The translations under genes and the position numbers were made by a program. Below, in pieces: positions 3,797 to 59,636 of a stretch of 64,000 nucleotides of DNA; positions within the stretch are counted from its first letter, which is position 1; each line of letters opens with the position of its first letter. This stretch comes from Dudresnaya verticillata (Eukaryota), in assembly GCA_977862235.1 (NCBI GenBank), contig OZ374559.1:2666001-2730000 (forward strand), read 5' to 3'. The notes under the pieces were generated by a model. That model searched no databases and was not told the origin of the DNA. It saw nothing but the letters and a program-made list of their open reading frames with translations.

Positions 3797-3854
3797 GCTT
3801 TCCGTAGTTCTTTTTCATGAATGATTAACGTCCTACTTCTCTCCCAAGTTAGAA

Positions 3855-16788: not shown

Positions 16789-16900
16789 GGCCCCTTCCCA
16801 GGGCCGGTCCATCGATTGATAAATAAATAAAGGTGTGTGTGTGTGTGTTAATTTTGAGAGACCTTTATTAAAGAACAAGAGAGAAGCCCCTTAAGGGTGC

Positions 16901-19903: not shown

Positions 19904-21111
19904 TATGCGTTGGGAATCATTGCTACGTCTGTCGATTGTTGTCCTAGATCAATTGATGCGGGTAACGCATCCGGGGAAGGCGAGGATTCATCAGAAGCAT
20001 TTCGAGGGAGAACACGGACGAAACAGTCGGCATCAGGAGAAGATAGGCGACGATATACCCTGCGTCGCTTCGCACCAATATTCGGGTAGTCTGCAGGGGG
20101 TTGAGGCAACGGATGGGTATCATGACCCCACTGAGAAAGACTTTCTTGAAGCAAAGCATGAGTGGAGCGGAGAGCAGCCGAAAAATACGGTGCGGGGCCC
20201 CACTTACTAGCCGAGGTCTCCAGGGGCGTAATCTCATTTTGCAACGGAAGGAAAACAGAGTTAACTGCATCGACAGTATTTAAGGAGGTGTGAAGGTCGG
20301 TGATTGCAGAGAATTCCAACGTCGGTACTATAGAGTTGTCAGCATGTTTCGCCAGATCCGTGAATGCCTTATATGCTGGCTGTAGTGATTCACGATCACG
20401 AGCTGCAGCGACGACATAAAAAACGGCAGGGTCCGTAGTGCGAAGGATGGAGCAGGGGCCAGGAAATCCACCTTGATGTATAGCTCGGCGGAATTCAGCT
20501 GGATGTTCAATGATATCGGTCTCTTGCGCAGTCGAAACGCGGACAACACGTTTTTCATTTCCCCCGAATAGACGACGATTAGTACGACGAACATTTCCCG
20601 CGAACTTATGCGTAAGAGCCGCGTGAGGTGGGATACACTGTAGATCGAGCCCGTTCCGACCGAGGAGGGGCAAGCGCCCTACGGGCGTAGGCTTCTGAGT
20701 CGCCCGAACAGCATTAAGATACGATTTTGAAGCAGAACTTCCGGGTTCAGAGTCAGGAACCGGTGCAGAACGCGGCAGACAGGCTTCAACAGGGGTGGAC
20801 GGAGGGACTGCACTTGACACAGCCGGTCCAGCAGTAGAAGCAGGGACAGGTCCAGAGAGGTTTAGAAAGACACGAAGAAGAGATTTAAAATGCAGATTGT
20901 GTTGAAATGTCGAGATAAGAGCCTTAACGCGCGGTAGTTCAGAGATCTGGAGAAGGAAGGTGTCTACGGCATTTTTATTTCCGAGATCGACCACGGGATC
21001 CAATAAAGAGGCGGATAGTGCAATAAAATCGACGGTGGCATGCGTGAGAGAGACGAAAGCTTCTTGTTGGACATTTTGGAGCGAACGACGAGTATGATTG
21101 GCTGAAGGCAT
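19903..21111 (-). CDS. ORF1 of the two-ORF element (402 aa from MPSANH); no domain recognised
   Basis: The first ATG inside the element in this frame is at 21111. The ORF is also open in the second copy (ATG 63403). The stop TAA overlaps the ORF2 ATG. Confidence 0.75.
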   Translation of the reverse strand: MPSANHTRRSLQNVQQEAFVSLTHATVDFIALSASLLDPVVDLGNKNAVDTFLLQISELPRVKALISTFQHNLHFKSLLRVFLNLSGPVPASTAGPAVSSAVPPSTPVEACLPRSAPVPDSEPGSSASKSYLNAVRATQKPTPVGRLPLLGRNGLDLQCIPPHAALTHKFAGNVRRTNRRLFGGNEKRVVRVSTAQETDIIEHPAEFRRAIHQGGFPGPCSILRTTDPAVFYVVAAARDRESLQPAYKAFTDLAKHADNSIVPTLEFSAITDLHTSLNTVDAVNSVFLPLQNEITPLETSASKWGPAPYFSAALRSTHALLQESLSQWGHDTHPLPQPPADYPNIGAKRRRVYRRLSSPDADCFVRVLPRNASDESSPSPDALPASIDLGQQSTDVAMIPNA

Positions 21112-24100
21112 GACGAACAAGATGACACGACAGGGGGTAAACGACAGTGGCAAGAACAACGAGTGGAAACAAACAGGATCAAGGGGAAAACGAGAGACGG
21201 AAACACCACGAAAGGCGAAGAAACCCCTCGCGAGCTGCCGGCGCAAATACGGCAGAGCCGCAGTTGCAGAGCTCCGCACAGTCACGCTAGAAGGAGGGGA
21301 AGAAGTAGAGACAAACAGCGAGGAAAACAAGCCTGGGGTTCCCAAAGGAGCAGAAAACGCCAGTAAGCAGAGGACTCTAATCCGGAGAAGAGCCTTGTTT
21401 CGCTTTTTGACGTTAATTTTGACACCGAGATATCTGGCAGTCGCTCGCAGCCAGTTCCATGCGTTGTCCCGCAATTCTTAAAACTGTCGAGCTTGGGCCT
21501 TCGCGATGTCTGCTGAGCAGGAGGATACAGCATTTCCCTACTGACCAAGTCATTCATTCCGATAGAAGCGGCCCGTTCTTCATAGACGGCGAGGGCCTTT
21601 CGCAAGGCGGCGGCCGATCAGCACACTTTGTGAGACATTCGTCGATCACGTTTCATCCGCCGCTCGAGTTTGGGCTGTAGAACATGGCGTGAGCAGGGGT
21701 GGAAACCTTCAAGCCAGTCGACAAACACCATGCTGAGATTGCTTTTTCTCTCTAGTTGCGGGTAGAGAACCAGGCGGGATTGCGTGCGTTCAAGTCTCCC
21801 GCAAGGAATTTCTTGCCGTGCGTGAGTGGTTTTAAATCATGCAGTTCCGCAGGCATCTCAACTGGGTTTGCTCGAGGGCTAATGTGTGTACCCATAATGT
21901 CTCCAAAGACTGAGATGTTCACGCATACAAGCCGGTACAGTGAATGTTGGACCGGGAGTTGTGGTTTGCTTTGTGTGTACCGTAGAGTAGCTCAAAGCTA
22001 GGGGCCGGCGACGATGGCCACGCCGCCAAGCGCCTTGTTCCTTGTTACTGCACGGGAGGCGGGGAGGAGGTCGCCAAGTCAAGCCAAGGGCCCCTTGTTC
22101 TTGCACGGGAGGCAGGGAGGGGGAATGTCGGGTGTGGAACCTGCCACACTCCCGAAGCCGTCGCTTGCATATAGCGTAGTATGCCGGTATGTTTCCCGGT
22201 TAAAATGCGTAGGTCGGGGTTGGCTGTGGTGGGGAGTTCCATGAAGTCAGGTGGAGTGAAGTGGAGTTTAATCCTGACATTCCAGGTGCCTACCAGCGTT
22301 AGGTTTCCATACTGTCATTTTTGGAAGATGCTTAGGGTATTGGTGTGCTTTCTTCTCCGAGGGCGATTCTGCGTGTCGTTCAACACTGTGGGGCGTGGAG
22401 TGGGGCGCAGTGTTGGAGTCCAGTATTTTCTGCAACACATACCCGTTTGGTTCCATCGGGTCCATCAGCTTCCAGTGCCTAGCTGAACGTTGCGGTGGGT
22501 TTCCAATGCAGTGCATTGGTTGACTGGGCGGCTGGAGTGACGATGTAGAAAGTGCACGGTCTCGCCCGTCTCGGTCGATTTCCTGTACGTACTTACATGC
22601 GTTCTGGCAGGCAGCAGCGAGTAAACGAGGTAGCGATTGGTACACATTCGCGGTGCGGGTGGGGAGTGAGCATAGTAATATCGGACCTGCGGTGAACAGC
22701 AGCAATTTTCGTCCTCGCGGCCCGAACTGCTTGGTGGGCCTACTTGTCTAGTTTAAGACCAGTGGTCGGCGTTATCCTGATCTCCAGTACGGTGGGGCGG
22801 TCGGTAGGCAGTATTGTAGTGTTGAAGGGCAGTGGGGCTTGTTGGGATGTCTGAATAGAGCACGTAGATTTCGCAGTCGTAACGCTGGCATGTATTCAGT
22901 GGGCTGACCGATGACGCGGTGGGAAACCTTGAGTTCAATGAGTCCATTTGAGCTACTAGATGTTGCATAGGCAGGGTTACCACCAACGTGCTTACTCGGC
23001 GACAGGGCTGAGAAATGTTCTGCAGATATGTTGACCAGTACTTGGAGCCATGCGGGAGGAAATGTGAAGCGCACCGGCGAAGTCGCGGAGGGTTTGTTCG
23101 GCTTTCTTCACGCGTACTACAGTTTCGGTTTTGCCGGTCCCACCCGGTGATAATTCCACTCTGAGTTATTTTCTTTCGCAGCGGTTTCCATGCGTTGTCG
23201 CGCCATTCGAAGAACCCAGCATATTGGTAGTACTCAATGTCTTGTTTGGAGAAGGGCTAAGCAGTTCCTTACTAACCAAGTCATTCCACTGGAAGCCGTC
23301 CATGGGCTGCAGATGGTGAGGGCCTTCCGCAAATCTTCTGTCTAGTCGACTTGTAGTAGGCAGCCATAGGCCAGCAGGTCCTGGGGATTGTGCTACAAAC
23401 TTCTCAGTAAGTTTGAGAGTCTGGAAGGGAAAGGAACGACCTAATCGATGCGAAAGTCGGGGTGGGAGTGGGAGCGAGCTACTTCTTGTAGTAATGCGGG
23501 ATCTCTTCGACAGTTTTTCTTTCACAGAACCGCTTCCTTTAACGTTACCAGTCGGGTATTGCCGCAGAATTTAAGCTCTGCCGAGAGTCGCAGTAATGGT
23601 ATCAGCGCGGGTTGAGGTGCTGGGACCCCCAGCGTGATTGCCCTCAGAAAAAGGGAGCGGAACGCCAGGCTTGCGACTCATGTCGAACCTTGGCAATTGA
23701 GGCAAAATTGGACGACGACAAGCGCGGTCCTGCCCGTACGGAAAAAAGGGTGTGATGCGGAACGAAGGGGTGCTGGGAGGCAGGATAGACGTCGGGTTGA
23801 GGGGGTATTGACCGGCCCAAACCAGTTTGAGTTTGGAAACTGGGTATGCAGAGAAGACAATAATTTCTTATTGCTTCACCCATGCCCAATGAATGGACGA
23901 CCGTTGCCAGTTGTTCAACAACAGATGTACAACAGATGTAGTCCCTGAGAGCTCCAGGTCTTGAAATGGGCGTGGGGCATCCGCGGTAGATTCAGCTTGG
24001 GACCAGTACTATAGGCATAACGCAGTGGAAGTCGGTTTAGTAGCTGGAGGATTGGCTGCTGAAGTCTTAGGGGCCTCGACAAGGCTGGAAGCGCACGGTA

Positions 24101-24879
24101 TATCGCCACATCCCGATGTGTGATTCTTGTCCGACCCGAATCCATTGTCGCGAGTTGCGTTCTTCGATAGGAGCGTAGGATTTCGATTCGCAAGTTGGAG
24201 TGAGGGTTGGCCTGATGATGTTCATTCGATCTGCCAGTCGGAGGGGGGCTTAACTTACTCTCGGCCTTGTCATGTTTGGCCTCGAAGATGGGGCGCCTGG
24301 GGTAGGGTACTTGCCGTCTTCTACATACGGCGGGGCATTTGGTGATGGAGGTACGGCCGGTGGACGCAGGGTTTTTTGGAAGAAAAACTTCGATGATGCT
24401 GCAGTGACTACAAGTGCAACGTCGAAGATTGCGTTCGGCTGTCAAAGCCCATTTCTCGACCAGTCGCAGATCCGAGCTGTAAGCATACGAACATTCTGTT
24501 TTTGTGACAAATTTCTGAGCCAAGTTTAACCAACGCGCCTTTTCCGATCTCCCGCCGCCGCCATCGACAAACCGAAACAGACGAATTCCCGCCACCGAAC
24601 ATCAAACCCGTCGGCTGCGTTGGCGAAGACCCTGTTCCCGCCTACGCCCCTCGCCCCATACAGTATAAACATTCGATCCGCCGCCCTCCCCTTCTCAAGC
24701 GCTCCACCCACGCCATCACTAGCGCCAACGCAACCGCCAACACCACCTCTACCCTTCGACGAAAGCCCACCCCACCATTCCCCCTCCGACCAACCCTTCC
24801 ACACTCCCCCAAACAAGCCATCTCCATGCATACTTGGCACTCGATCAACTCTGTCCCAGCCGCCCCCTCATCGACTGCA

Positions 24880-27472
24880 ATGAACCCGTCCGCAAATCAA
24901 CAGCAGCTGCGTATCTACACTGGCGCCAGCTTCCCGCCAGCCAGTCCTGCGATGCCAGAAGTTAACCCCGCACCGATGCCTTTGACGCAGCCTGCTCCAA
25001 TGCATAATGCACTTGCATTTCCCGCTCATCATGCTCACCACGCTCCGACCATGTTCATGTCGCCGTTCCACGGCGTCCCGCAAGCAATGCCGACTTCTTC
25101 TGCGCCGATTTTGACTCCGGCTCGGCAGCAAGCACCACAGCAAGCACCGCAGCAGTGGGCAACCGCCACAGCCTTCGCTTCAAGCTCTCAGTGGAAGCAG
25201 GCCGCAACCCCCGGTGCAACGACTGGGTCTTATCACGGACTCGTGCCGACGTCCGATCCCATGCAGGCGCAAGCCGGTTATGCCCATCCGTCAGCGTCAG
25301 CTGATTTCGGGGCTCCGACTTCCTGGAACATCTATTCTGGTTATGCTTACGCGAATGACGCAACTATTCTCCCTGTGCATGCTGCAGAGCACTATCAGAC
25401 AGATGCTTTTCCCGAGTGTTATCGCAGTGCCAATTCGGGTGAAGCGGCAACACCCTACAGTGTCTATGTCCCCATGCATCAGAACTATCAGAACTACAGC
25501 CTAAACGGCTTTGAAGGAAATGGCTACGGCACCGGAGAGGCCATGGTGGCATACGGTCCTGATCACTTCCAAGCCCAACAGGTCCCGCCCGTTTCTCAGC
25601 CGCTGGATGCCGTGACTGAGCCCATTGGCGCTACTTCAACATGTTCTAACCCCGGTTCAGGAGCTCACGTGTCAACGAACCAGGAGCCCTACCACGGTCT
25701 TCAAGTTCCCAAGGTGGACTTCTTCGGTAATGTCGCTGGTCAAGAGGGCAACTTCAACTGCAGAGGAGATGCAGACACAGGAACTTGCCGGTCTGCTGGC
25801 ATCTTCGAAGATAAGAGTGTGAGAGTAAGTCAGCAGAGTATGGCAACTTCACATGTGGCATTGGATACAAGCAAAGGAGATGTGAATGTTGACCCCAAAA
25901 ATATTTTGGAGCCAGTGCATCGAACCGCTGATATCCGTGGCAAGACTTCCGTTTCTGTGTCGGACAAGGGGATTGCAGACCACCATCAGCCGAGAGGTTT
26001 TGCTTCTGCAAAAAGGCAGCAGAAGAACCAGGCTCATACGAAACAATTAATGATGCCGGGAGCCTTGCAATTCGGGAACTTCATTGTAGAGAAGGTTCCT
26101 GGGTCCAGACCCTTCCGACGTGGGCGCTTTGATTCACCCACCTCACCTCTCTTGTACTTCAATCTGTCGCGGTGGCTGTTAACTGCCGTTTACTCTTCGA
26201 CCGTCGCCTTTCAGATGAGTTTTAGATAAGCCCCCTTACGGGGCTGTAGTCTTTCCTATGCATAAAGGTCTCCATCTTTTTCTTGATTTTTCAGCCTTCA
26301 AGGTTCATGGGCTTGGTAACAAAGAAACAGATTTGCGCACATCGCCTCTACGGAGCGCGAGCGCTTTCATATCTAACACAAGCACAGCCAGGAAGAGGGC
26401 TGGTAAGAAAAAGGTTAGAAAGGGAAAGCAGGGAATGAATTCTTTCTCTGCCGACGCAACTGCACCAGTCACTCACAAGAACAAGTCTCATATGCTTCCA
26501 GTCTCAGAGAAGAAAGAACGCGTTCAAGTTCCCTCTTCCGGTCAGAACTCTTCAAGACGTATCCAATCTACCTCGAGGCCTCCATCTGTACAGTCGGCAA
26601 AGGAGGCGAAGAGTTCATCTCCAGTTCATCTTAGGAAGCAGAACCTGAGAGTAGAAAGTGGCATCGATGCGGTTGAGCAATCCGCTCAACTTCCAGGAGA
26701 ATCTTGGGCTACGGTTGCCATGAAATTTCCTTCGGGTAACTTCAGTCAGTCTGTATCGAATACTGCTGCTGCGAAGGGTGGTAGAGACAAGGATATACCG
26801 AAGCTAGACACAATTTCGCCTAGAGTGGCCCGAGTTCCGGGAAAGAGAGAGCATCAGAAACACGGCACTGTTCCAGACTCCGGAGCGTCTGGTCAAATGA
26901 GCCGCTCGGAAATCGTGAGTGAAATGCTGGCGAGTCTCGACATGACTTCTAACATCATCCGCCAGAGCGCCAGAACACTTCCAAGTAGCACGGCTACTGC
27001 TTCGAATCCCGAGAAACATTCTGCACACAGCAATATTTCTGCCTCGTCGCAGAACGAAGTTCCGATTTCGCTGCAAGGAAAAGAAGAAACCAAGAGGGTC
27101 TCGGAAGTGGATCGAGCATATGTAGGGAAGAAGGGCAGTGACTATCGTATAAGCGACACGAAGAAAGGAAGTAATTTCTTGGCTTCAGATATGACTTCGA
27201 AGCTCTCCAAGGGTACTGGAAAAGTGGTCGCTCCTACCAAAAAGACCGCTGTAGCCGCGGACGAGAAGAACTGTAATGCGGGAGGGGGCCTGCCCTTGGG
27301 TAGAGAACCTCAGAATGACGGAGTTAACTCCACCGTTAGTACCCCCACGCCTGCTGCCGAAGATGGATCCCGCCTTGCGGAGAAGGACGCGCTTGCGCGG
27401 ACTGATGGGGATGGTTTCACTATTGTCCGACGAAAGAGGAAGCCAATGAGGAAGAGACATCTTAAAGCCTAA
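24880..27472 (+). pseudogene. Low-complexity protein copy B, interrupted by a retro-insertion
   Basis: ORFs 24826..26229 and 26258..27472 join into one 813-codon frame once 154 bp (insert plus one TSD) are removed. Copy A has the empty site (RGRFDFSAF). Confidence 0.7.
26135..26282 (+). mobile_element. 5'-truncated CRE-like insertion with 6-bp TSD
   Basis: TTGATT at 26129-26134 and 26283-26288. Encodes LTSLVLQSVAVAVN (compare LLSLVLQCVAVSVN). Ends GCCCCCTTACGGGGCT...ATAAAGGTCTCCATCT. Confidence 0.85.
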
Positions 27473-28386
27473 TTTTCACTTGGGAGAGAAGTAGAACTTT
27501 AATCATTCGTGAAAGAAGGCCTGGGATATGCCCTCAAGAAGAGGACAAATCGAGGCCACGACAGTGAATGTTCATGAGAGAGAGGGGTACTTTATTCGTC
27601 AGAGCGAGAGATATAGCGGTAATGTGGAGAACCTGTGAACCGAGCTTGGTGAAGAGGACATCGCGTTCCATTACTAGCGAGGTGCCCCGGCGAGCAAAAA
27701 TAAAGTCTGTAACATCCCGCCGACTAGCCTCGAAACCGGGACCGAGGGTTCCGTAATTGTCCGCTGCAAGGGGGTGGAAGTCGGCACCTAACGCGAGGCA
27801 AGCGCAGTTGACTTTGCAACGATTGCACCGTTCAGCAACCTGAAGAGCATGTCGGGGAACGCCCGGTATTGCAAACAGAATGGGGGCTGACGATCGTGAC
27901 GTCAAACATCTGGGGATGCGGAGAGAGGAAGGGGTGAGACGTAGAGGTCTAATAGCCGCTGCCGCTGTAAGCCCTGGTGGAAAGGGAACTCTCGAGGGGA
28001 TCGCGAAAGCCGTTATGGCGCGTCGTACTGACTTGTGACATTACCACTGTCCAATAGCTGCCATTAGGGCCCGGGGATGGCGCAAGCGACAATAGGTAGG
28101 GAATGTGTGAAAAGCTGGAAGGCTCGGAGAGGGGAGGACCGAGGGAGACTTGGAGACGAATCCCGGGCGTCGTGAGAAAACCAGCACTGTGTGCCCCCAC
28201 GACAACTTGCCGTCTTTGTGATTTGCCCGGTGTTGCAGTTGCGGAAGGTCCGGTTTATCCCGTGGTAAATTTAAGTTCATCGCCAACGTAGATATTGTTA
28301 AACTTTACTCAACTTGGGTTTGAGTGTGTCGAATTCGGAAGCTGGTAGAGCGTCGGATACCACTGCCAATATTATCTTAAGGAAGG

Positions 28387-31871: not shown

Positions 31872-33192
31872 GGCATAAAATGGGGTTACGATGCTTCATC
31901 GGTGTTTTATAGTCCAAAATCACTAGCGAGTAGGTAATGTACATTCTATGGAGGGCCATATTCTTCTTTCAGCACGCAATCTTAGACTACAGCCTGTCGC
32001 TCAGTTTGGGGAGGAAATTGGTATCTACCTTTCTTTCGTCCCTCGACAGGAAACAACGGAAATTTTGACACATCCTTGCGCACTACCTGAAGAGAGAGAT
32101 GGGGACATGGTTCCCTATCGACCGAATATAGAGAGGGTAGATACGAATATTCTTGTCAAACTGAGCGACAGTTTCTGGTCCAAGAAAGGAGCGCACTGCA
32201 TTAATTGGGAAACCCCCGTCTAGTATGTCCGGGGTCGGAACATGAACGGTTTCCTCCAATAGCTCCTCGAAGATCATCTCCTGTACTCCTGAAGAAGATG
32301 CAGAAATTACCTGCGGGTTGCTCACTCTATCTCGATGTCTCTTTGCGTTGTCCCCACGTGCAGTGATTCTAGGGAATTGGCGGCTTACTCTTGAAGTATC
32401 ATACGAGCTCAAAACGTGCCCTTTTACGTGGTAGCTTTCTTCGCGTTCTCCATGGCGTTCTGTTCAATGGCCATCTATGAGCTTGATACAGTATTTGTAC
32501 GAGTTAGGGTGTGAAAGAAATGATGTAATCGAGGTTCCATTGCTTCAGTTGAAGCGCAAGTCGGTGGTTAGGGAGTGGGAGCAAACTGCTTCCTGTCTGA
32601 ATGCGAGATCTCTCGGCAGGGTTTCTTTCAAATAGTTGATAAACGGTGAAGCGGGGTCTGCAGAATGAAGATGGGTATTGGCAGTATAAAGATGGAACAG
32701 TAGTCGAAGTATAAAAGTAGCTTTGGATGCTGTGGATGGATACTTTGGGCAGAAATGGATTGCTTGTCGAATCAATAATATGGACTGCAGTCCGCCACAC
32801 AGAATCAATGCGACGTAAAAAAGTGATGGGTGTCGTCGTCAACTGTACTTTTCTTCTACAGTAAGAACTGCAGTGCTACGGTAACAGTAAACTAGCAACG
32901 AATGCATTCCAAAACATACCCGTGCTAGTTGAAACGATAACAAATAGTTCTTCAAGCCGTGAACGATTTCAAATACAGAAAGCATTTTCCAAGCTGCGCA
33001 AGCTTGTAGCAGTTCAAAGTTACACAAAGAGCCACTTCCTGAGATACTTCCAGTCGGGTCTTACCCCTGGATTCAGCTCTGCCAAGAGTCACAGTAGTGG
33101 ATTTGCGCAGGATGAGTTTATGGAACCCCCCACTGTGATTAACCTTAGAGAAACGGAAGTGCAACTGTACAGGCTTTTGACCGATATCGGAC

Positions 33193-33594
33193 AATGAAAA
33201 CATTAATTGTCCTACGGTCGTATGCATACTGATTCAATCATTCTACAGTCGTATGCATACTGATGAAATGGATCTACAGTCGTATTAATACTGCAGATAC
33301 TATTCTACGGTCGTATTCATGCTGACGAACCATGTTTCTGTTTTATGTAGTTGTATTCACAATGGTTCTCAGTGAGCACTTTCTTCTAACTTTATTCAAC
33401 GGTCGTTTTACGTTTTAGAGGCAGTCTTCGCCTGCCTATAAGTACCGCCTAGTTCTCTCTTGTTCTACCCTCTCAACAGGACAACATTTTATCTAGACAA
33501 CACAATCTGATCTACTCTGTTCTGTAAATCTACTGTTCCTCTGATACCGCTGCTACTGCCAACTTGCTACTGAGCCAAATACCATTCCTTTATT
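33193..33594 (+). repeat. 5' LTR (AAT...ATT)
   Basis: Direct repeat of 38065-38466; three substitutions seen by eye. Confidence 0.95.
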
Positions 33595-33607
33595 GTTATG
33601 GGCCCAG
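33595..33607 (+). promoter_or_regulatory. Primer-binding site, half-tRNAiMet (Hemivirus) type
   Basis: GTTATGGGCCCAG directly follows the LTR and matches the Drosophila copia-type PBS. Confidence 0.8.
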
Positions 33608-36600
33608 GCTCATCATCGGCGTATCTGCCGACTCGCCCAAGGTTTTCTTGGGATATCAAAAATGTTCCTTGGACAGATGGCAAAGGCAACCAAGAAGAGT
33701 ACTCACTATCTGTTTCTTTATGGAATGCTTTCCATAACAGGCTCCCAGACTCTAACTCAAACAAGATACCCACGGAACTTCGTGGTATAATGCTTCAGTC
33801 CCAGCTTTATGGAAGAGCAAAAGATCTATGCAAATCCATTCCCGATACTGAGATCCAATCTGCTACTGGCTCAGAAGCTGTGGTGAATGCTGTATACAAA
33901 CGAGATGCACTCTCGGTTGTCAGTGAAGTTTACCAAAACTTTATTGCCCTATTAAGTACCAAGCGCGGAACCACGGAGACATACAAAAACTTCGAATCAA
34001 GATTCGACGCTCAAGTTTCCAGATTCAATGCTGGCTCCAGTACAACAAAGCTCCCAGAAGCCCTTACTGCTTTTATGCTACTTGCAAATTCTGCCGTGGA
34101 TAACGGTCAAAGAGTTTCTGTTCTTGCAGCAGCTTCGAACAACACAAATATAGCTCCTACAGCTACAACTGATGATTTTCTCGATTCAGTTTCATACGAG
34201 AAAGTAGCTTCTGTTCTAAGGCAGTGTGACCAAGTCATGACTGAGAATATTCGTCCCCTGTCTGCAAATGCTGTGAACACTCAGTTCAGAAGACCGATCT
34301 TCCCAAGGAATCGCAGAAGGCTTACACCTGATCAGCTTGCAGATCTTAAAAGCCGCAGCAAATGTCGTAAGTGTCACAAATTCGGACACTGGCACTCTGA
34401 TCACACAGATGACGGTAAACTCAAGCCTGGAGTCAAGTCTACTGATAATCCTGCTCCTTCTGATGCAAAACCGAACACACAACCACCGAAGAAAACCATG
34501 ACCTTCAACATGGGTCATCTACTCGATTCCCACAATGAGATAAGCGAAGACTTTACAGGCCCCTTACTTGATGACGGTGGTCCGTACAGTGGTCTAGGGA
34601 TGTCCGAGTTTATGATACTGCAGCCCATTATCCTACCGGACTGGGAAGGCAATCTGGACCCTATACCCCAACAGCTTCAGTCTTGTGCCTTTTGGCAATA
34701 CGGTGCAGGGCAACACTCCAGTGAGGCAAGGAGAATTCTCGGATCGGTCACTTTAATGGCTCGCACTGATAAGAACAACCTGGTGTCTATCCGACACCTA
34801 ATCATTGAAGGCTCCTCGCAATGGATTATCGGCCGTAATGTCACGAAGCATTGTGACATTGTTCATGTTGGCGATAACAGGCTCGTTATGCCAACATCTG
34901 AAGATTCAATCGGTCTCCAAGACAATGGATTCCACAGTTACATACCCTATAACGTATTTCTACCGAACAGTTCCGACCTGTCATCCCGTGTCACGAACAA
35001 GTTCTATTGTGCCACTGCTCAGATCAACCAAAACCATGACACTCGTCCCTTTGGAGACATCAAGAAGATTGTTGATAAGGTCCATCAACACGTCTGTGGA
35101 CACTCTTCTTATTCTGATATCAAGATATTGCTCCAGCGAAACAAAATTTGGAATGCTGAAGTACAGAAATATTTGTCCCGTGTCCTGGATAGATGCTCAA
35201 GTTGTTTAACTACTTCTCAACCGAAAGACACCCGGAAGGTCTCACTAAGCTCCATGAGCAGGAACTTTAACGACGTTGTATGCATTGATCATTTCCACCT
35301 TGATATGAACCGCGTGTTTCATCTCATGGACTCTGCTTCAAGATATTCGACCGGCGATGTTGTAAGCACTATGACTATGACGGAAGCTATTAATTGTTTT
35401 GAATCTCTATGGATAACACCATTCTGGACCCCCAAATGTGTTCTATTTGACCAAGCGTTCAACAATACCGAGTTCATACATTATCTGAAAAGTCAAGACA
35501 TTGAAACTCGCCCTATACCTCCGCGTCGCCACAACAAAAATGTCATTGAATCTAAGCACAGAGTTATTCGAGATATCTACCTACGCCTGAAAGAAGGATG
35601 TACAAATGACTCTGCTGAGCACCAAAGACTCCTAGTGCAGCAGGCACTACGAATATCAAATGATCTGTACGGAAATGACGTATGTTCTGCTCATGAGTTG
35701 GCGAAAGGCTATACGAGACCTATAACATACGGAGAATTTCCTGCACAAGTTCCTGAAGAAATTTCCAAGGCCCACGATGACCTCATGGCTATGCGAAAAT
35801 TAACCCGCATCCTTCACTCCAAGTCAACTGCTGATATACCATTCAATGTTGGAGATACCGTACAAGTTTATATCAAAGAACAAAATGCCAAGCGCGGCAA
35901 GTGGTCATCTCCGAAGGTGATTTTATCGTTCGATAAAACGTCTGGAACCATTTCAGTTCCTGGAAAACGTGGACGCCAAGTCCAAGCAGCTGTTGAAGAT
36001 GTCCGTCCTGCCCTACCTGTGGATACACTAGGCAGTTCCATCCAAGAAGCAATTGATGCTCTCTCCAAAAGTCTGGATGACAGCATTGATGAGCTCTGTT
36101 CTAAAGAAGATGTGGCATCAAATGAAGAGCTTGAGACTACCACTATAGAGGAGGTGGGATACGAAAACGATGACGGAGATATTCTCAGCTCACACCCCGA
36201 CGTTGGTGACGTCATTGATGTATATTGGCCCCTCGACGATATGTTCTACACTGGAAAAGTGGCATCAATTAACGAAGATGACAACCAGTACAACATTGAT
36301 TACAATGATGGTGACAAAGAATGTCTCAAGTTATCGGATGAGACCTGGCGCTATAGCTCGGATGAAGCAATAGCAACCAACAACGTACAAATATCAGATC
36401 AAACGCTCACAAGTTCTCTGCAAGAGGTTCTTGGGTCGTATACTCTTGCCTTCGGTCACAAAGATTTTATGCGCTACCAGACTCAAGGGCTACCAACGTT
36501 TCCATTGTTAAATGCTTACAAAAAAGAAGAAGAGGCCTTTAAGAAAACAGTCAAGATGGTCCATGCTTCTGATATCCCAAAGCATGCAAATGTCATCACA

Positions 36601-38040
36601 AGCCATGTGATATACAAAGTTAAGAATAATGACGATGGCTCGATGAAAATGAAAGCACGCATAGCGCCACATGGTAACAAGGACAAAGAACGCTTTCAGT
36701 TGAAAACAGACTCTTCAACCTGTCCGCCAACTGGTATTCGCATTTTGCTGTCCCTCGCTGCTCAGTTCAAGTGGTTCTTGGCCAAGATCGATTTTAAGAG
36801 CGCGTTTCTGCAAACAGGAGAAGCAAAGCGAGACGTCTATGTCGTTCCGCCACGAGAAAGCGACGACAAGCAGCACTATTGGTTGTTGCTGACTGCAGCA
36901 TATGGTCTTGTGAACGCCAATGCTAAGTGGCAGGAACAAAGTGACAATTTCTTAACATCGATCGGTCTCCGCCAACTCGTTTATGTTCCACAGTTGTTTT
37001 ACAAGAAGGACGCAATTGGTTCATTGCAACTCGTTGCTGTCAAAATTGTGGACGATGTACTCTTTGCTGGTGACCAGTCAACTGTTCGGTCAACTATTGG
37101 AAAGATACAGGAGCGCTATGAGCTCGGGACAATTGTTTACGGTCCGGGCTCGTTCCTTTTCTTTGGCCTCCACATTGCTCAAGATGATGAATGCTCTATA
37201 AGGATACAAGCTGATGAAAAGTTGGAAAACTTAAACTGCTACCCCATTGATCGACAAAGAAGAAAGCAAGGAGATGAAGTTCTAAATGCTGTCGAAACTA
37301 GTTCCTTCCGATCAGTCAACAGCTCGATTGGATGGCTTGGAATTGCCGCGTCGCCATTCTGTGCCTTCTATGCCAGTCATTTACAGCAGAAGGTACCTCA
37401 AACCACTGTACACGATATGATCTCTCAAATCAACTCTTTGAGACTGCTGCAAAAACTTGGAAGTACCATCATGTACAAGCGACCAGCAGATAAGAAAGAG
37501 TACCCTCTATCCGTTCTGATGTTTGCAGACGCTAGTCGAAGTTCTGACTATGGCCAGCTTGGTTTCATATCAGGTCTACTTATCGGTGACTTCGAAATGG
37601 GTTCTATATTCCATACACTTTCATGGTGTTCACACAAGTCAAAGAGACCAGTCAAATCTATTGGAGCTGCAGAAATACTAGCGTCTGGTGAAGCAATCGA
37701 TGAAGGCAAAGTTCTGGTTAGTGCCTACAAGACGCTTCTCGACGTTGAAGTTGACCTGATGGTCGCTCTTGACTCCAAGGATTTATATGAGACTTTATCA
37801 ACCTGCCGCAACTCCATTGATCGCTCTATTCGGGCAGATGTCAGCGTCATTCGATATGAGTTTGAGACGCACAAAGTGAATCGCATCATCTGGATTCCTG
37901 GCAAGACCAACCTTGCAGATCCACTCACTAAGGCTAACAGCCCGCTTGTTCAACCCTTACAGCTGACAATGTTTTCTGGAGAGCTCAGCATGAACTTCAC
38001 AGATAATCTCTTTCGCAACTCAAACCAGTTCACTGGTTAG
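33598..38040 (+). CDS. Copia Gag-Pol polyprotein (1480 aa) with an extra Tudor-like domain
   Basis: Knuckle CRKCHKFGHWHSDH; protease LLDDGG; integrase H..H..CSSC, CIDHF, FDQ, IESKH; RT KARIAPHG, DFKSAFLQ, YGL, IVDD; RNase H FADAS, AAE, DSK, LADPLTK. Confidence 0.95.
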   Translation: MGPGSSSAYLPTRPRFSWDIKNVPWTDGKGNQEEYSLSVSLWNAFHNRLPDSNSNKIPTELRGIMLQSQLYGRAKDLCKSIPDTEIQSATGSEAVVNAVYKRDALSVVSEVYQNFIALLSTKRGTTETYKNFESRFDAQVSRFNAGSSTTKLPEALTAFMLLANSAVDNGQRVSVLAAASNNTNIAPTATTDDFLDSVSYEKVASVLRQCDQVMTENIRPLSANAVNTQFRRPIFPRNRRRLTPDQLADLKSRSKCRKCHKFGHWHSDHTDDGKLKPGVKSTDNPAPSDAKPNTQPPKKTMTFNMGHLLDSHNEISEDFTGPLLDDGGPYSGLGMSEFMILQPIILPDWEGNLDPIPQQLQSCAFWQYGAGQHSSEARRILGSVTLMARTDKNNLVSIRHLIIEGSSQWIIGRNVTKHCDIVHVGDNRLVMPTSEDSIGLQDNGFHSYIPYNVFLPNSSDLSSRVTNKFYCATAQINQNHDTRPFGDIKKIVDKVHQHVCGHSSYSDIKILLQRNKIWNAEVQKYLSRVLDRCSSCLTTSQPKDTRKVSLSSMSRNFNDVVCIDHFHLDMNRVFHLMDSASRYSTGDVVSTMTMTEAINCFESLWITPFWTPKCVLFDQAFNNTEFIHYLKSQDIETRPIPPRRHNKNVIESKHRVIRDIYLRLKEGCTNDSAEHQRLLVQQALRISNDLYGNDVCSAHELAKGYTRPITYGEFPAQVPEEISKAHDDLMAMRKLTRILHSKSTADIPFNVGDTVQVYIKEQNAKRGKWSSPKVILSFDKTSGTISVPGKRGRQVQAAVEDVRPALPVDTLGSSIQEAIDALSKSLDDSIDELCSKEDVASNEELETTTIEEVGYENDDGDILSSHPDVGDVIDVYWPLDDMFYTGKVASINEDDNQYNIDYNDGDKECLKLSDETWRYSSDEAIATNNVQISDQTLTSSLQEVLGSYTLAFGHKDFMRYQTQGLPTFPLLNAYKKEEEAFKKTVKMVHASDIPKHANVITSHVIYKVKNNDDGSMKMKARIAPHGNKDKERFQLKTDSSTCPPTGIRILLSLAAQFKWFLAKIDFKSAFLQTGEAKRDVYVVPPRESDDKQHYWLLLTAAYGLVNANAKWQEQSDNFLTSIGLRQLVYVPQLFYKKDAIGSLQLVAVKIVDDVLFAGDQSTVRSTIGKIQERYELGTIVYGPGSFLFFGLHIAQDDECSIRIQADEKLENLNCYPIDRQRRKQGDEVLNAVETSSFRSVNSSIGWLGIAASPFCAFYASHLQQKVPQTTVHDMISQINSLRLLQKLGSTIMYKRPADKKEYPLSVLMFADASRSSDYGQLGFISGLLIGDFEMGSIFHTLSWCSHKSKRPVKSIGAAEILASGEAIDEGKVLVSAYKTLLDVEVDLMVALDSKDLYETLSTCRNSIDRSIRADVSVIRYEFETHKVNRIIWIPGKTNLADPLTKANSPLVQPLQLTMFSGELSMNFTDNLFRNSNQFTG

Positions 38041-38048
38041 ACTCAGCT

Positions 38049-38064
38049 AAGAAAGCGGGAGGAG
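38049..38064 (+). promoter_or_regulatory. Polypurine tract
   Basis: AAGAAAGCGGGAGGAG lies immediately before the 3' LTR. Confidence 0.85.
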
Positions 38065-38466
38065 AATGAAAACATTAATTGTCCTACGGTCGTATGCATA
38101 CTGATTCAATCATTCTACAGTCGTATGAATACTGATGAAATGGATCTACAGTCGTATTAATACTGCAGATACTATTCTACGGTCGTATTCATGCTGACGA
38201 ACCATGTTTCTGTTTTATGTAGTTGTATTCACAATGGTTCTCAGTGAGCACTTTCTTCTAACTTTATTCAACGGTCGTTTTACGTTTTAGAGGCAGTCTT
38301 CGCCTGCCTATAAGTACCGCCTAGTTCTCTCTTGTTCTACCCTCTCAACAGGACAACATTTTATCTACACAACACAATCTGATCTACTCTGTTCTGTAAA
38401 TCTACTGTTCCTCTGATACCGCTGCTACTGCCAACTTGCTACTGATCCAAATACCATTCCTTTATT
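38065..38466 (+). repeat. 3' LTR (AAT...ATT)
   Basis: Direct repeat of 33193-33594, followed by TSD CGGAC. Confidence 0.95.
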
Positions 38467-38619
38467 CGGACCTTGGCAATTGGGAAACAATCGGAAGACG
38501 ATAAACGTGACCCTGTCCGTACGGTGAACAATGAGCAAGGATAAATGGCGGGATGCTGGGCGGCAGGATATGTGTCAAAGACGTATACCTAAAGTTGTTG
38601 AAACACAGGAGCGCACGGA

Positions 38620-39275: not shown

Positions 39276-40319
39276 CTATGGCATACGAAGTTCTTGTCCA
39301 GGGTAGATAAGGTCTGGGTTTTTGATACAATCATTGATTTGGACGATTTCCATGTACCGACTTCCGCTGCCAAGCTGCGCCTGTGCAATCTTCCAAAGCG
39401 TGTCGCCAGATTTCACGGTGTAACGATGCGCACTGTCTTCAAGACTGCTTTTCGCTTTCTCATGGATCTCTTTCAATTGTTGAAGGGCGGCGTCGGTCCA
39501 ATCCAGACAACTGGAAGAAATCCACTTTTCTTCGTAGGCCTTGATGGCCTTTCGTTGCTTTTCTTTTGAGAGCCCATTGGAACGGCGGACAACACTTTCC
39601 AGTGCAGAAACGTTGTGTTCGCCGAAAGCGATGGCACCGTCCCGCCTGGCAAACTCAACAATCTCGACAATGTTATTGCCAATTTCTCTGGGGACTTCGA
39701 GGCCGGTTCGCAAGTACGGGACGTCCGCCGCGGAGAAGAATTTCTGAAACAGGAAGTTGAAGGAATCCTCTCGTTTGCGGCCGAGTATAACGGGGAGGTC
39801 AGTCTCAGCAATGCCGCTTTCTCCTGACCAAGCGTGATGGATTATGTCCGCGATGTCTCCAGAAGCTTTATGTACAGTGGTGCTTTGGGAGATGTTCTTG
39901 TCGTGCAAGATGTATTTTTCGAACAACGTTGGTTCGAGGCGTCCGACCTCGTGGCTATTCAGGATGGAGTTTTTGGGTAACAGGGCGACGAAGCGCAGCT
40001 TGACATTGGTGTCGGGGGCGACATGCAGGAAGGCGCGGAGCTCTGTGACGCGCCAGGCGCTCTTGAAGAAGTCCGGGGTGAGCAGGAACACTGCGACGCC
40101 AGTGGGACGGGTGTGTAGGACTGCGGTGAGGATTGAGACGAGCTTGCCTTGCAGAGCGGTCTCGTCGAAGAAGATTGAGGGTTCTGCGTCGGCCTCTTCG
40201 GCGTGGGCTTCGAGGACATCTTTGGTAGCGCGCGCAAGCTCGCGTGTGGTGAAGCCGGCGGGGAGGGTTTCTGAGCCGTGGAAGCTTAGGAAGACGTCGA
40301 TGCGGTGGTCTGGGCCCAT
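39276..40319 (-). CDS. TIR domain - helical (death-fold-like) region - LysM protein
   Basis: TIR motifs IDVFLSFHG, IFFDETAL and VAVFLLTPDFFKSAWRVTELRAF. C-terminal LysM YTVKSGDTLWKIA..LGSG.RY.EI...N..IKNPDLIYPGQELRMP. Intact, intronless 347-aa ORF. Confidence 0.9.
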   Translation of the reverse strand: MGPDHRIDVFLSFHGSETLPAGFTTRELARATKDVLEAHAEEADAEPSIFFDETALQGKLVSILTAVLHTRPTGVAVFLLTPDFFKSAWRVTELRAFLHVAPDTNVKLRFVALLPKNSILNSHEVGRLEPTLFEKYILHDKNISQSTTVHKASGDIADIIHHAWSGESGIAETDLPVILGRKREDSFNFLFQKFFSAADVPYLRTGLEVPREIGNNIVEIVEFARRDGAIAFGEHNVSALESVVRRSNGLSKEKQRKAIKAYEEKWISSSCLDWTDAALQQLKEIHEKAKSSLEDSAHRYTVKSGDTLWKIAQAQLGSGSRYMEIVQINDCIKNPDLIYPGQELRMP

Positions 40320-42076
40320 CGTGTGGGGGGGGGGGGGGGGGGGGGGCGGAATGGCGTTGGGGATGGGGGCGAGGTGTCGGTCGGGGGTGGGCGTTTAAGC
40401 AGAAGAGGTTGTGGGGACATGGGGGTGGAGGGTCAGGGATGAAATGGTGGGTGCACAGTTGTGCAGCAATGTAGAAGGTGATTGCGATTCGAAACGTTTA
40501 ACAAGAATGGGATTGTTCCCGAAAAGGGAAACAGCCGTCGTCATAAAATACGTCGGAGTGAGCTGTGTTGCCTTCCAACGCGGTTGGTAGCTGAGTTTAA
40601 GCCGCAATATCGATACGAACATTGTGCTGATAGTTCAAATACTGTACAGTACAGCCGCAACGGTAGCTCTGCGGGGGCCCATGATTTGGGCTTGCAGAAG
40701 CCCATTCTTGCACACGTCACGTCGGTAACCATGCACGTGGGCCCTTGCGCGCATATGCCCCATGCTGTGCTGGCCGGAGCGCAGCTTCGAAGCTCCCTCT
40801 GCTTTCGAGACTTGAACGACATGTTCGATTATTCTGCTTGAACAATAGTTTACGTTCAGACCAGCCTATCCTTGGAAAGCGATGTTGATGTTGAATTCTC
40901 TAGTGCACCTGTAGGGCTCCAGCGCGGACGACTAGGGCCCTTTCGCAAGCGTACCGCCTCGAGACATTGTAGAGAACAGGGGGTGCTGTGTTGGGACGGG
41001 GAAGGCTGCGCCTGGGAAGCAGCAGGCCCCCTTATCCAGACCTAGACGTGACAGCTGACATAGTGCCTAGCCATTTTGCTTAGTTGATGCTTTAGTCTGT
41101 ATCTAGAGTACGAGAGCACTGGTCATGAAGGATGTATGTAGTTGCTCTACGAAGACACCTCCCTCGTTCCATAACTGCCTCTATCAATCTGAATATCCCG
41201 ACGTGCTTAAATGTTGCCATGCTTAGGACACATTGACTAGATCACTACGTTGCGGTGCTCCTCAACTTTAGAAAAGCAAACTTTACCAACACTGCGTAGC
41301 AGTCAAAATTACTCTGTCAAGCACAACAATGATTATTACAACAGAAACGTTCTTGGAACAAGGGCAGCATGTTACTTGCCTATCAGCCATCGTCGCTCGC
41401 ACAAGACCACGTTAAACAAACATTAAAATCAAGCATCACATTACCCATCCATCTTGAGCACGCCCTGTGTTACAAATTCCCTTGATGGTTGGCCACTCCC
41501 GCTCTCTATCTGACACATCTTACTATTCATGTAATACGCTTCACTACAGCTTTGACACGTCAAAGTCCCTATTCCTTCCTATTAATGTTGAATGCAATGC
41601 AATGCACGGTTCCTGTTGAATCAAGGTCTCACATTCTCTCCCTTTCTTCCACGATTCTTACACGAAAGCAGGCCTTTGCAGCCCAAGCCGACGCACTCTA
41701 AATCCTGTCCTGTAAAGTTTATCATCACACGAAAGCAGTAGAACGAATACATGGGTATTTTAATTACCACGCACAAGGGATATCAGCTCAGGTCTTGGAC
41801 GCCACAGGCATTATCCTCCGCGAGGAACACAAAATTAGGAGAAGCGTGTAGCTGGACCTATAGACCATAAAAAGGTCAAGAATAACGACAAGATCAAGAA
41901 ACTCCGGACAAAACCAAGCCTCCAAGAGCAGTTGAAGCCTTTCGCTTCGTGTCCAGAACAGAATTGCGATTCCGCAACAGCTGTGCAGATGGCAGGCACG
42001 GCAGTGGGAGCCAGTTTCAGATAGCACACATCGATGAGTTTTGGAGCATCTGATGAACAGAAGCAAATTATATATA

Positions 42077-42475: not shown

Positions 42476-42688
42476 AGAGAGAGAGGAGACCTTTATTAAA
42501 GAACAAGAGAGAAGCCCCTTAAGGGGGCTTAGGATTCAGAGCTACCATAAAGAGGCGGAGGAGCAAGCTTGCGGCGGTTGACACTCACCGCGACGCATTG
42601 GAGAACTAAAGAGAGTAAACGAGTAGTGAGGCGAAGTTTCTCCGTAGACGGAGAGGTCCCGCGCTTGCTGGCAATGAAATTAGCAATA
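42476..42688 (-). mobile_element. 5'-truncated copy (3' ~200 bp) of the two-ORF element with (TC)n tail
   Basis: Near-identical to 16856-17060. Confidence 0.9.
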
Positions 42689-47300: not shown

Positions 47301-48578
47301 TGGGGATAGCGAGCTCTGCCGAGCGTCCTGAAGCAGCAACAACCCGATACAACATCTACCCGAAAGGGGTTTCTACGGGTCTGTGCAACTTTTAGCACTA
47401 TATTTGGCACTTCACTGTTTGGGGCTGAACTATATGGAGTTACCAAATTTAGAGGTTCTGGAGGGGATATAAGCACTACAGTCCAGCTTAGACAACCCCT
47501 CCGTCTCCCCTAAGTTCTTTCCTTCGTTCTCCCGCCCACCCACCCTTCATCTTTCTCGACTTCAAGTCCTTCCTTCGTTTCCATAATTTCTGTTGAGCAT
47601 TCTTGCTGTTTGTTGTTAGTCATTGCATTCGACTACTCTTCTTCTGCAACAATAAAAGTAGTCATTTCCTTTTCAAGGCCTGGCAATCTATCGCCGTCGT
47701 CTTGCCCTTCAGGTAGGTCCTTGAGTAGACCGGGGGATCTACTACCGCGTTTCGAACCCTACCGTAAAGTTCCCCATCTCTCTTTATTCCAAAGATTTAA
47801 AGAAAGCCCGGTAGGGCGACAAGAAAAGCTATGATCTTGAGCACCCGCCACCAAACAAAAATGGAGCAAAAAGCACGACCAACTGATGACATCTCGATTT
47901 TACAGGCAGTCATGCTTTCAATTTGTTTCATGAACGAGGATCTCCTTTCCCGCAAGCAAAACAGTAGCAGTTCCCATCATGGGGAACGGGGAACAAGAAG
48001 TAATGGTTCGACACAGGCCTTGTCGATATTTGTAAGAGAATATTCACCAACGCGCTGAAAAGTACAAATCCTTCCATGCTCCACTCAGCCCCTCAGCCAG
48101 ACGATAGACGAGACGAGCTCCCTGTTGGTTTTCACCAAAACGATCTTGTTGGGATGGGAACATCGAGGGGTGCATCATCACAAGGGCTTGCAGTGCAAGC
48201 CGCTCCGTAGAAATGTTGAAGATGGCTCACTGGGGCAGTGTGATGGCGGTGGCGTTGGTGGCGGGGCGTGCGTGCCGCATGGACAGCCAGACAAGACCGG
48301 TCAGGGGGCTCCGCCGAGTGCTCACCGGCAGCGTAGAAAACAAAAAACATCCAATACCGCACGATTCACAACTCGCGCGTGCAATTCAGTCATTGCCATT
48401 CACCGCCGCCTCCACGCTCCCACCTTCCCGCTCCGCCTCGTCCCCACCCGCGCCGGTGGGGGCGGCCTCCCCTCCGCCCAGCGGCCGCCCCCGCCGCTAT
48501 AAAGCCGCACGCACACCGCCGCGCACCGCACCACCACCTACGAACCCCACCCCCAACTCTCCCCTACCACCCGCCACG

Positions 48579-49268
48579 ATGCTCCCGCACCTCTCCGCCG
48601 CCGTCGCTCTGCTCCTGCTCGCTGTCGTGCTGCCGCGGCCAGCCGCGGCGTCCATGTGCTCGGGCACGGCGTCGTACAAGCTAACGCTGTCCAACTTCCT
48701 CCAGCCGTCGGCCTTCTCCAACTCCATCCCGCCGACGGGGCTGGTCTTCTCGCCGCCGACGCTAGCCACGCACTCTGCGCGCGTCTCGCTGCTGGTGGCG
48801 GGCGCGTTCGCGTCGCCGCAGATCCGCGACGTCGCCGAGAAGGGCGACAACACCGCCCTGGTCGCGCTAGCCACCGAGCTGCAGTCGCTCGGGCTGGTGC
48901 GCGACGCCGTCGCTGCGGACGGGCCCACGCGCCCCGGAAACGTCACCGAGCTCGACTTCACCGTCTCCTGCAACGCCACACGCCTTTCGGTCGTCGCTAT
49001 GATCGCCCCCAGCCCGGACTGGATCGTCTTCATCCCAAGTCTCGACCTGTACGACGCTGACGCTGCGAAGTTCCGCGAGTACAAGTGGGGCGATTTGCGC
49101 GCATATGACGCAGGCACGGATAGTGGCCGTGGCTTCACTGACCCCGCTGATGTCTCGCTCGATGTGCCTACCGTACCGCAGCTTAATATCGCCCTGCTGG
49201 AGCAAGATGAGACTGACGCTTTCGGTGACAAGGCCGTTGGCCGCTTTGTTGTTAAGCGCGTCGAATAG
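48579..49268 (+). CDS. Secreted Spondin_N (F-spondin/mindin-type) domain protein
   Basis: Signal peptide MLPHLSAAVALLLLAVVLPRPAAA; FSP...ATH, AEKGD, MIAPSPDW, LRAYDAGTDSG. TATAAA at 48498-48503. Confidence 0.85.
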   Translation: MLPHLSAAVALLLLAVVLPRPAAASMCSGTASYKLTLSNFLQPSAFSNSIPPTGLVFSPPTLATHSARVSLLVAGAFASPQIRDVAEKGDNTALVALATELQSLGLVRDAVAADGPTRPGNVTELDFTVSCNATRLSVVAMIAPSPDWIVFIPSLDLYDADAAKFREYKWGDLRAYDAGTDSGRGFTDPADVSLDVPTVPQLNIALLEQDETDAFGDKAVGRFVVKRVE

Positions 49269-58047: not shown

Positions 58048-59636
58048 CTCCCGGCTCGGTTAACCGATATTGCGTGCAGATATCGTGAATTCCTTTTCGT
58101 CAAGAAGTCTTTCCATCGAGTTACACACTGCACCAGAGGCCTATCCGCCATTCAAGATGGAATAACACCCATAGAGCACACTTTTTATAGACCATTAAAT
58201 AGTATTCTGTGTGAGATGTTAAAGACAAGCTTCCTTTGTGGCTAAGAGTCTCCCATTCCTACCCCCTTCAAACTGAAATTATCAATGCGCTGTACTCTGC
58301 AACTCAAAGCCAAAACCTGTGCGGCCGTTAAAACCGCTATGCGTGTGTGATGAGGTTTTTAAACAAAACTTACAACTGCACAGCGATACACGACATGTTT
58401 CTGAAACGTTTCTCGCGTTTAAGGGAAATTATAACGTTCCTTTATAGAAGGAAAAGGGGTTCTTTGGTTCCAGTTAACATTACCCTTTCTAAACTTGTTC
58501 CATCCAAAGGAATATCGAGAACTTCCTCAGACACTATGATGTTGGACGGATATTGCTAAATGGATCTTCTGCATTCATGTTCTTGCATTTTGTTCTTCGT
58601 TTGCCTTTGGGGAGCTTCGCGAGAGCCTATCGTTTTATTTTGATAATAATGACTAGTTTCAATCTCAAACTGAGAAGTTTTTTTGCATTATAGTCATCAT
58701 AACTTGTTGTAAGACAATGACACGCCGCAATTCCAATATGCATTCGATCGACGCAAAAAATCCTTTTCGGCTCATCACAAGACTTTGTCCCAAGCGATAA
58801 AACCATGTGGCACATCGTCGGCTCACAGTGACAATATTTCGGTGTCTGCTCCATATCTCGCAGAGTTCTTTATTACAGTACCGCGCAGAAAACTGTTTCG
58901 CACCTGCAAAGTATACAATAGCACTAGACTCAAAATGATTGTCTCTCGAGCCCAATATCATCATTAAACTTCATGCACAGGTATCAATAGCACAATAGTA
59001 ATAGTTCCTAGTGACCCTGTTCTTGTGTTTGCAGCCGTGATCGCGTGCTTTAGATGATAAAGTTACGCCAGTGGACAGTTTCTGGAGCTGCTTTGCCAGC
59101 AGAGATAAATGTCGAAATTCTTCATTATCTAGACTAACGTGATGGCTGCAAGTTGTTAGAAGCTTTTATCTTTGCGGGGTCTTCAATATATTCTTGTCAT
59201 CTGTTTTCTTTCTATCGAGACCATGGAATACTGTACGATAGAAAATTCCAAAAAGTGTACTGTTCTGGAAAGTCAGAAGACTCTGCCATTGGAATAGCTT
59301 GCCAGCTAGCTTGCACTGTTTTAAGTTTGGTTCAGGATGTATGTTCGCGTAAGATCCGCAGACGCCTGAACGGATAATGCTCAGTAGGCTGATGCCTTTC
59401 TTGTCTTTAGAATAATTGGTAATAACCTGCCCTAACAGACTGCTCAATGCGATATTGAGGGATCTCCGCAAACTGAGCATTTCGTCTTAGAGATGGGAGG
59501 GGAGGTTGGAGGAAAAGTACCAGACCCGAGATGTACTATATAAACACTTGACAATTGCAGGCGACTGATTCATCTACTCCATCCAAGTACCAGTTCCTCA
59601 AGAAACCCCGATTTCGAGTTCAACTCACAAAACGCC

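Follow-up and report, generated by a model that had tools for sequence, protein, structure and literature searches.

AAT...ATT termini and a predicted histone-reading Tudor domain in a Copia retrotransposon of Dudresnaya verticillata

We analysed a 64,000-nucleotide stretch of Dudresnaya verticillata DNA (assembly GCA_977862235.1, contig OZ374559.1, positions 2,666,001 to 2,730,000 of the forward strand; hereafter the window), which carries a long terminal repeat (LTR) retrotransposon at 33193-38466. For retroviral-type integrases, a terminal CA is regarded as nearly universal; the LTRs of this element begin AAT, end ATT and are flanked by a 5-bp target-site duplication (TSD). The integrase probably joins blunt complementary DNA (cDNA) untrimmed and tolerates 3'-TT in place of 3'-CA, which would produce the AAT...ATT ends, and comparison with relatives shifts the interpretation from a recent change of specificity towards a loss of the terminal-CA rule that is old and lineage-wide. 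Furthermore, the polyprotein contains a Tudor domain, absent from the first-pass annotation of this DNA, that is predicted to read histone H3 mono-methylated at lysine 4 (H3K4me1). The features that define the ends, including the primer-binding site (PBS) and the polypurine tract (PPT), are the following.

33193-38466 (+): whole LTR retrotransposon, from LTR identity and the flanking duplication
33188..33192 (no strand): left TSD copy CGGAC, 5 bp, from flank comparison and the empty paralog
33193..33594 (+): 5' LTR, 402 bp, AATGAA...TTTATT, from LTR alignment and junctions in other sequencing runs
33595..33607 (+): PBS GTTATGGGCCCAG, abutting the LTR with zero spacer and pairing with bases 26-38 (anticodon arm) of tRNA-Met
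38049..38064 (+): PPT AAGAAAGCGGGAGGAG, running directly into the AA that opens the 3' LTR
38065..38466 (+): 3' LTR, 402 bp, from LTR alignment
38467..38471 (no strand): right TSD copy CGGAC, from flank comparison
23494..23790 (+, approximate): unoccupied paralog of the target, from flank alignment, with a single CGAAC at 23684-23688, then CTTGG

Both LTRs start with AATGAAAA and end with CCTTTATT, and they differ at 3 positions over 402 bp; with an intact open reading frame (ORF) of 1480 aa, these features support the young, intact insertion proposed in the first-pass annotation. At 45 of 53,111 window positions, two 5-mers at the spacing of the LTR flanks match exactly by chance. The element does not have the 5'-TG...CA-3' termini of canonical LTR elements; its top strand has no terminal CA, as had been noted, with the refinement that the left end reads CA-TT-3' on the bottom strand, placing CA two bases inside, and that TG occupies LTR positions 3-4. 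The sole other boundary reading with common LTR starts has a 6-bp duplication, TCGGAC, and an end one base shorter, at TTAT. The 5' LTR also contains short direct repeats within its first 140 bases and a TATA-like TATAAG at 33437; no second copy of the element was found within the 64-kb window.

We then compared the junctions of other insertions. Parts of the element are present in 8 public sequencing runs from 4 studies, and contigs from 7 runs aligned on it, with approximately 98% identity in long pieces. Junction counts are given among the matches listed, which comprised 23 of 81 loose-end rows in one set and 8 of 10 in another. All four right junctions have ...TTTATT complete, followed by AATGA (X3), CTCAC (X1), GAAAT (X1) and CTGAG (X7), and all four left junctions have AATG... 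complete, preceded by CTCAC (X1), ATAAC (X4), ACTAC (X8) and CTCGC (X2), where the left 5-mers were read by taking one or two matched flank bases as equal to those of the window, and X2 and X4 are one sample. No junction splits AAT or ATT, and contigs in X1 and X2 start exactly at 33193. One left and one right junction from X1 have CTCAC in common and no common 6-mer; we infer that these two contigs represent one insertion, fitting a 5-bp rather than a 6-bp duplication. All five left flanks (window and four junctions) finish in C, four of them in AC; we claim no target preference, because the read alignment favours flanks resembling that of the window.

The unoccupied paralog is 71-75% identical to the element flanks, and the left-flank end and the right-flank start both align onto its single CGAAC (23684-23688). 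Since it has the 5-mer once, with neither AA nor TT, AAT and ATT are assigned to the element. This answers in part the proposal to look for an empty site: the boundaries coincide with those first proposed, in a paralog within the same window rather than a true empty allele, which the aligned runs, none of them spanning the flanks, did not yield. The 6-bp TCGGAC reading with the TTAT end was ruled out, as all four right and all four left junctions keep the ends. A more general misreading, in which a TG...TA element had taken AA and TT from its target, could draw on the TG at LTR positions 3-4 and on the formal availability of the 6-bp duplication; AA and TT are present in both LTRs, and with the 8 of 8 junctions, the paralog and the X1 pair against it, we regard it as so improbable that it is refuted in practice. 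LTR identity, the 8 further junctions and the unoccupied paralog thus agree with the ends and the CGGAC duplication described in the first-pass annotation, and the check it proposed on other copies came out in favour of whole AAT/ATT ends, the X1 pair also fitting a 5-bp TSD.

Searches for relatives returned approximately 60 long sequences (28-66% identity) and 340 shorter ones, with species-named close matches in Gracilariopsis chorda and Agarophyton chilense, which points to a probable red-algal host. In a tree of reverse transcriptase (RT) and RNase H (a quick search of 40 rows without named reference lineages, with the SH-like approximate likelihood ratio test, SH-aLRT, as sole support), the window element groups with 26 relatives in a separate clade (SH-aLRT 100), within which five members without the Tudor domain form a subclade (SH-aLRT 97). 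Right ends could be fixed in 5 of 26 related loci; the right end of L006 gave candidates only, and the 3' LTR starts of L006, L011, L019 and L026, without a 5' LTR, were left uncounted. Four of the five (L026, L022, L018 and L016), at 34-55% protein identity to the element, have a CA-TT right end. In L026 (53-55% identity), CCTTTCATT stands immediately ahead of a perfect PBS. L018, in its 3' LTR, and L022, in its 5' LTR, are homologous (82% over 204 bp), and their similarity ends at TTTCATT, after which L022 continues into a decayed PBS and L018 into unrelated DNA. In the old, deleted copy L016, GGCCT precedes TGTGAAT and GACCT follows CTTTCATT (4/5 duplication match); its apparent ends are TG...TT, and the interrupted reading frame of its flank resumes in register. 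TT is retained at the integrated junctions of both L018 and L016. On the left, the window family has AAT and L016 has TG, the left-hand AA being shown in the window family only; three distant Copia contigs (3 of 4 listed) begin with TG after the purine tract. Judging by these ends, the lineage has long had CA-TT on the right. The non-canonical ends reported earlier as altered end recognition therefore stand, and their description as a property of a recent element holds only in part, given CA-TT in relatives at this distance and a TG left end in L016.

The PBS pairs over 13 nt with a eukaryotic tRNA-Met anticodon arm, the last LTR base being the first mismatch; the tRNA used for this pairing came from contig L041 of another eukaryote, not from the host. 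With that tRNA, the element has the complementarity to the tRNA-iMet anticodon arm that marks half-tRNA-primed Copia elements of the copia and Ty5 type, for which such priming has been described (PMC5371799). The spacer between LTR and PBS is zero in the window element, L026 and L022. The ORF start codon lies within the PBS (ATG is the anticodon complement), and the resulting MGP start is common to 23 of 60 relatives.

The coding region comprises gag, protease, integrase, RT and RNase H, in that order, as follows.

33598..38040 (+): gag-pol ORF, 1480 aa, starting M-G-P within the PBS
34363..34404 (+): zinc knuckle C-x2-C-x4-H-x4-H (CCHH), by motif
34564..34590 (+): protease active-site motif LLDDGGPYS
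35083..35742 (+): integrase HHCC domain and catalytic core (D564, D618, E651), from motifs and structure model
35857..36009 (+): SH3-like integrase C-terminal domain, from model strands 275-325, aligned with prototype foamy virus (PFV) and Ty3 integrases to model residue 329-330
36190..36357 (+): Tudor domain, RDM15-like (W877, Y884, Y902, D904, D906, E908), from profile search and structure comparison
36568..37191 (+): RT, RVT_2 (Copia type), Pfam, E 1.8e-19
37510..38037 (+): RNase H region, end near ADPLTK, from motifs in the translation, boundaries approximate

Two direct LTRs, a PBS, a PPT, a short TSD, an integrase placed ahead of RT-RNase H, an RVT_2-type RT and an HHCC plus DDE integrase identify the element, by sequence features, as a Ty1/Copia LTR retrotransposon. 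The CCHH knuckle and the DDG protease motif, described before as atypical, are present as stated and are not peculiar to this copy: pattern matching finds CCHH in 31 of 60 relatives and DDGA in 36 of 60, with 22 of 60 unmatched in each count, many of them N-truncated. Because they are frequent among relatives, we regard both as lineage traits and not decay. The integrase model matches mouse mammary tumour virus (MMTV) integrase at Z 18.9 and a root-mean-square deviation (rmsd) of 2.1 Å, with 32 residues between D618 and E651. Retroviral integrases contact the DNA end through the loop before the catalytic E. That loop is RRHNKNVIE in the element and is strongly conserved among 48 relatives (R644 in 47, H645 in 45, K/R647 in 46, N648 in 46), whereas the corresponding loop in six classic Copia proteins matching the pattern is PQQNGxAE. 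The integrase comparison suggested in the first-pass annotation thus yielded a distinct loop that may bear on end type.

These observations may be joined in one mechanism. The tRNA-iMet, cut in its anticodon arm, would prime the minus strand at the base after ATT; because priming begins directly after the LTR, the cDNA would stop at ATT with nothing to trim. On the other side, plus-strand priming would leave TG preceded by AA, two purines of the purine run; this AA prolongs the PPT, so that a cut two bases earlier would give AA-TG. Both ends would then resemble the retroviral NN-TG...CA-NN substrate before trimming, left whole. Either 3' terminus, CA or TT, seems acceptable to the lineage integrase, because L016 appears joined with TG on the left and CA-TT on the right. 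This points to tolerance together with non-trimming, the primers determining the ends, as a better fit than a switch of specificity. Ty1 integrase likewise uses blunt ends for joining and skips 3' processing (PMC8487063). Several points weigh against this account. Ty1 integrase, the model enzyme for joining without processing, requires a terminal CA in vivo and with physiological metal (PMC8487063, PMC2939329), so tolerance would have to be a derived change. The ends are known from integrated copies, and would also fit a model in which additional primer-derived bases beyond ATT are trimmed; the RRHNKNVIE loop is known by its conservation and not by an association with end type. The window family has TA-TT at its right end, and the inner CA is thus not strictly kept; L018/L022 allow two readings of the left end, TG or A-n-T; L012, a frameshifted old copy, has TTTTA before its PBS, not ATT; and L016 is a single old, deleted copy with an imperfect duplication, whose interrupted flank gene has no Pfam match. 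The reading frame in which L016 sits (471-517 and 3121-3467) looks like a transposase DNA-binding region, the Pfam search giving no match.

Processing at a shifted site is a competing explanation, in which primer-derived extra bases are cut off after ATT by an integrase of new, errantivirus-like specificity. The conserved right ends resembling CTTTCATT, the inverted AAT/ATT repeat of the window family, the lineage-specific and strongly conserved active-site loop, and the AGT/AnT ends of errantiviruses, where processing is itself unresolved (PMC5408687), are all consistent with it. However, the zero LTR-PBS spacer in the window element, L026 and L022 argues against extra bases, and strict ATT specificity would forbid L016, which appears TG-starting yet ATT-ending; we therefore give this explanation appreciably less credit than tolerance without trimming, while treating it as the most serious competitor. 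A recent mutation of a TG...CA element, either tolerated or matched by an integrase change in this family only, would account for a left AA shown for the window family alone and for the TG starts in the three distant Copia contigs and L016; it is improbable, given that CA-TT right ends are common to relatives at 34-55% protein identity and the loop change to 46-47 of 48 relatives.

We also examined the Tudor domain (residues 865-920), which lies behind the SH3-like domain of the integrase and ahead of RT. The family profile matches PDB 7DE9, the Tudor domain of RDM15, at E 4e-10. In a structure comparison on an AlphaFold model (mean predicted local distance difference test score, pLDDT, 85.6), the domain superposed on 7DE9 with Z 9.8 and rmsd 1.0 Å over 56 aa (34% identity), ranking above every other Tudor domain listed. 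In 7DE9, the RDM15 Tudor of Arabidopsis has H3K4me1 bound and contacts it through W616, Y623, Y641, D643, D645 and E647 (PMC8184781); all six residues are identical in the element, at equal spacing. The element thus has the RDM15-type combination of Tudor fold, W/Y/Y cage and two aspartates; the cage and acids are kept in 39 of 48 relatives, strictly so in 25 of 48. These similarities lead us to predict that the domain reads H3K4me1 in this element, and it may tether the integration complex to nucleosomes with mono-methylated lysine, most likely H3K4me1. Against this prediction, the Pfam Tudor matches fall under the cut-off, and RDM15 Q654 is E in the element. The five-member sister subclade is without the domain, and its knuckles are not CCHH by the pattern used.

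The element and RDM15 have in common the fold, the aromatic cage and the two aspartates that select the mono-methyl state (PMC8184781), whereas RDM15 is a host chromatin protein and the Tudor of the element is part of a retrotransposon. Gypsy-10_Ec32 of Ectocarpus, described in 2025, is called in its report the first transposable element with a Tudor domain (PMC12477816), and there too an algal LTR element has the domain at the C-terminus of its integrase (PMC12477816). That element belongs to Gypsy, whereas the present element is a Copia with the Tudor between integrase and RT and with a match to the RDM15 H3K4me1 site. Among diatom elements, CoDi3.2, 4.2 and 4.3 are described without TG/CA, and CoDi-A integrases with a putative chromodomain (PMC2806351, PMC2774666). 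Compared by description only, CoDi elements are algal Copia like ours; the reader in CoDi-A is a chromodomain, and here it is a Tudor.

For the ends themselves, the Rosaceae TGTT and AACA Copia subfamilies show CA changed to TT or TG changed to AA, with 4-6 bp duplications (PMC5659011), and the authors of that study suspect integrase divergence in the 3'-TT elements (PMC5659011). One end is changed per family there (PMC5659011), whereas both are changed here; the present element further differs by its half-tRNA PBS, Tudor domain and algal-type polyprotein, and the likeness is in the ends, without implying kinship. Drosophila errantiviruses (gypsy, ZAM and Idefix subgroups) resemble the element in their inverted A-n-T ends with terminal T-3' for CA (PMC5408687). 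These are Ty3/Gypsy elements with sequence-specific targets (PMC5408687); the element has Copia features (RVT_2, integrase before RT) instead of the Ty3/Gypsy domain order, so that the ends alone resemble and the resemblance is likely convergent. Ty1 and copia/Ty5 have a 5-bp duplication, an LTR abutting the PBS and anticodon-arm priming, as in the element (PMC8487063, PMC2939329, PMC5371799), but Ty1 ends TG...CA and needs CA (PMC8487063, PMC2939329), which the present termini are without. The GalEa lineage is defined by its PBS and by DTG(C/A), KARLVA, YVDD and TRPDI motifs, with DD(35)E given (PMC5445492). In place of the GalEa PBS TGGTAGCAGAGC, or the fungal hairpin site, the element has GTTATGGGCCCAG; its motifs are DDGG, KARIAP and IVDD, TRPDI is absent and ADxxTK present, and the D618-E651 spacing is 32 residues as opposed to the DD(35)E of GalEa (PMC5445492). 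We found no description of the ends of this lineage, or of a Tudor-bearing Copia, in the literature searched; Repbase and the Chondrus genome paper lay outside that scope and may catalogue the family. Nothing on this lineage came from 10.1101/2025.02.11.637652, 10.1101/2025.05.08.652912 or PMC10886601.

A young, intact, multi-copy element with both termini changed offers an enzyme with its natural substrate on which the need for CA can be studied, and mixed TG...CATT relatives would allow the order of the end changes to be traced. In a plant survey, the first T of TG..CA was the sole invariable base (10.1101/137141). As the first-pass annotation anticipated, searches restricted to TG..CA would miss this element, since its ends are truly non-TG/CA, and annotation tools tuned to TG..CA or to seven plant exceptions are likely to miss or mis-trim the family in red-algal genomes. 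The Tudor domain leads to a prediction of H3K4me1-guided insertion by a Copia element. Taken further, and only tentatively, a widespread, undescribed red-algal Copia lineage may have dropped both 3'-trimming and the CA rule, inserting NN-TG...CA-TT whole, and have captured an H3K4me1-reading Tudor that steers insertion; if true, this would be a Copia counterpart of the chromoviruses, aimed at a mono-methyl mark.

Prokaryote genome bins yielded one contaminating relative (L026), and among 257 genomes of the family of its bin, 2 had Copia-like matches. The 14-base end-plus-PBS pattern occurred in 2 of 401 genomes, in the L026 contig and deep in one long contig, the latter taken as chance. Viral contigs contained neither the LTR start nor a relative of the element, and an Atlas search returned only unnamed or generic integrase clusters. 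The bacterial bins G001 (L026, L036-L039, L041) and G214 (L042, L043) contain eukaryotic Copia contigs and are regarded as contaminated for that reason; G001 also carries a eukaryotic tRNA gene cluster.

The rest of the window contains further repeats and genes. Inverted dispersed copies occur at 20514-21360 and 63154-64000 (98% over 847 nt) and at 3813-5834 and 24401-27514 (81-98% in pieces); no Pfam family was found for the long ORFs in either pair. Two other long ORFs carry RVT_1 (11239-14760, +; 16904-19687, -), and copies of 16856-17060, approximately 200 bp long and 98-99% identical, lie at 42486 and 52964. Genes encode a TIR protein (1059-2381, +), a Hint-module protein (8365-10263, -), a LysM protein (39279-40394, -), a Spondin_N protein (48108-49265, +) and a GH18 protein with CBM5/12 (59544-61130, +). 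The joint occurrence of chitinase, LysM and TIR genes suggests a defence-gene region.

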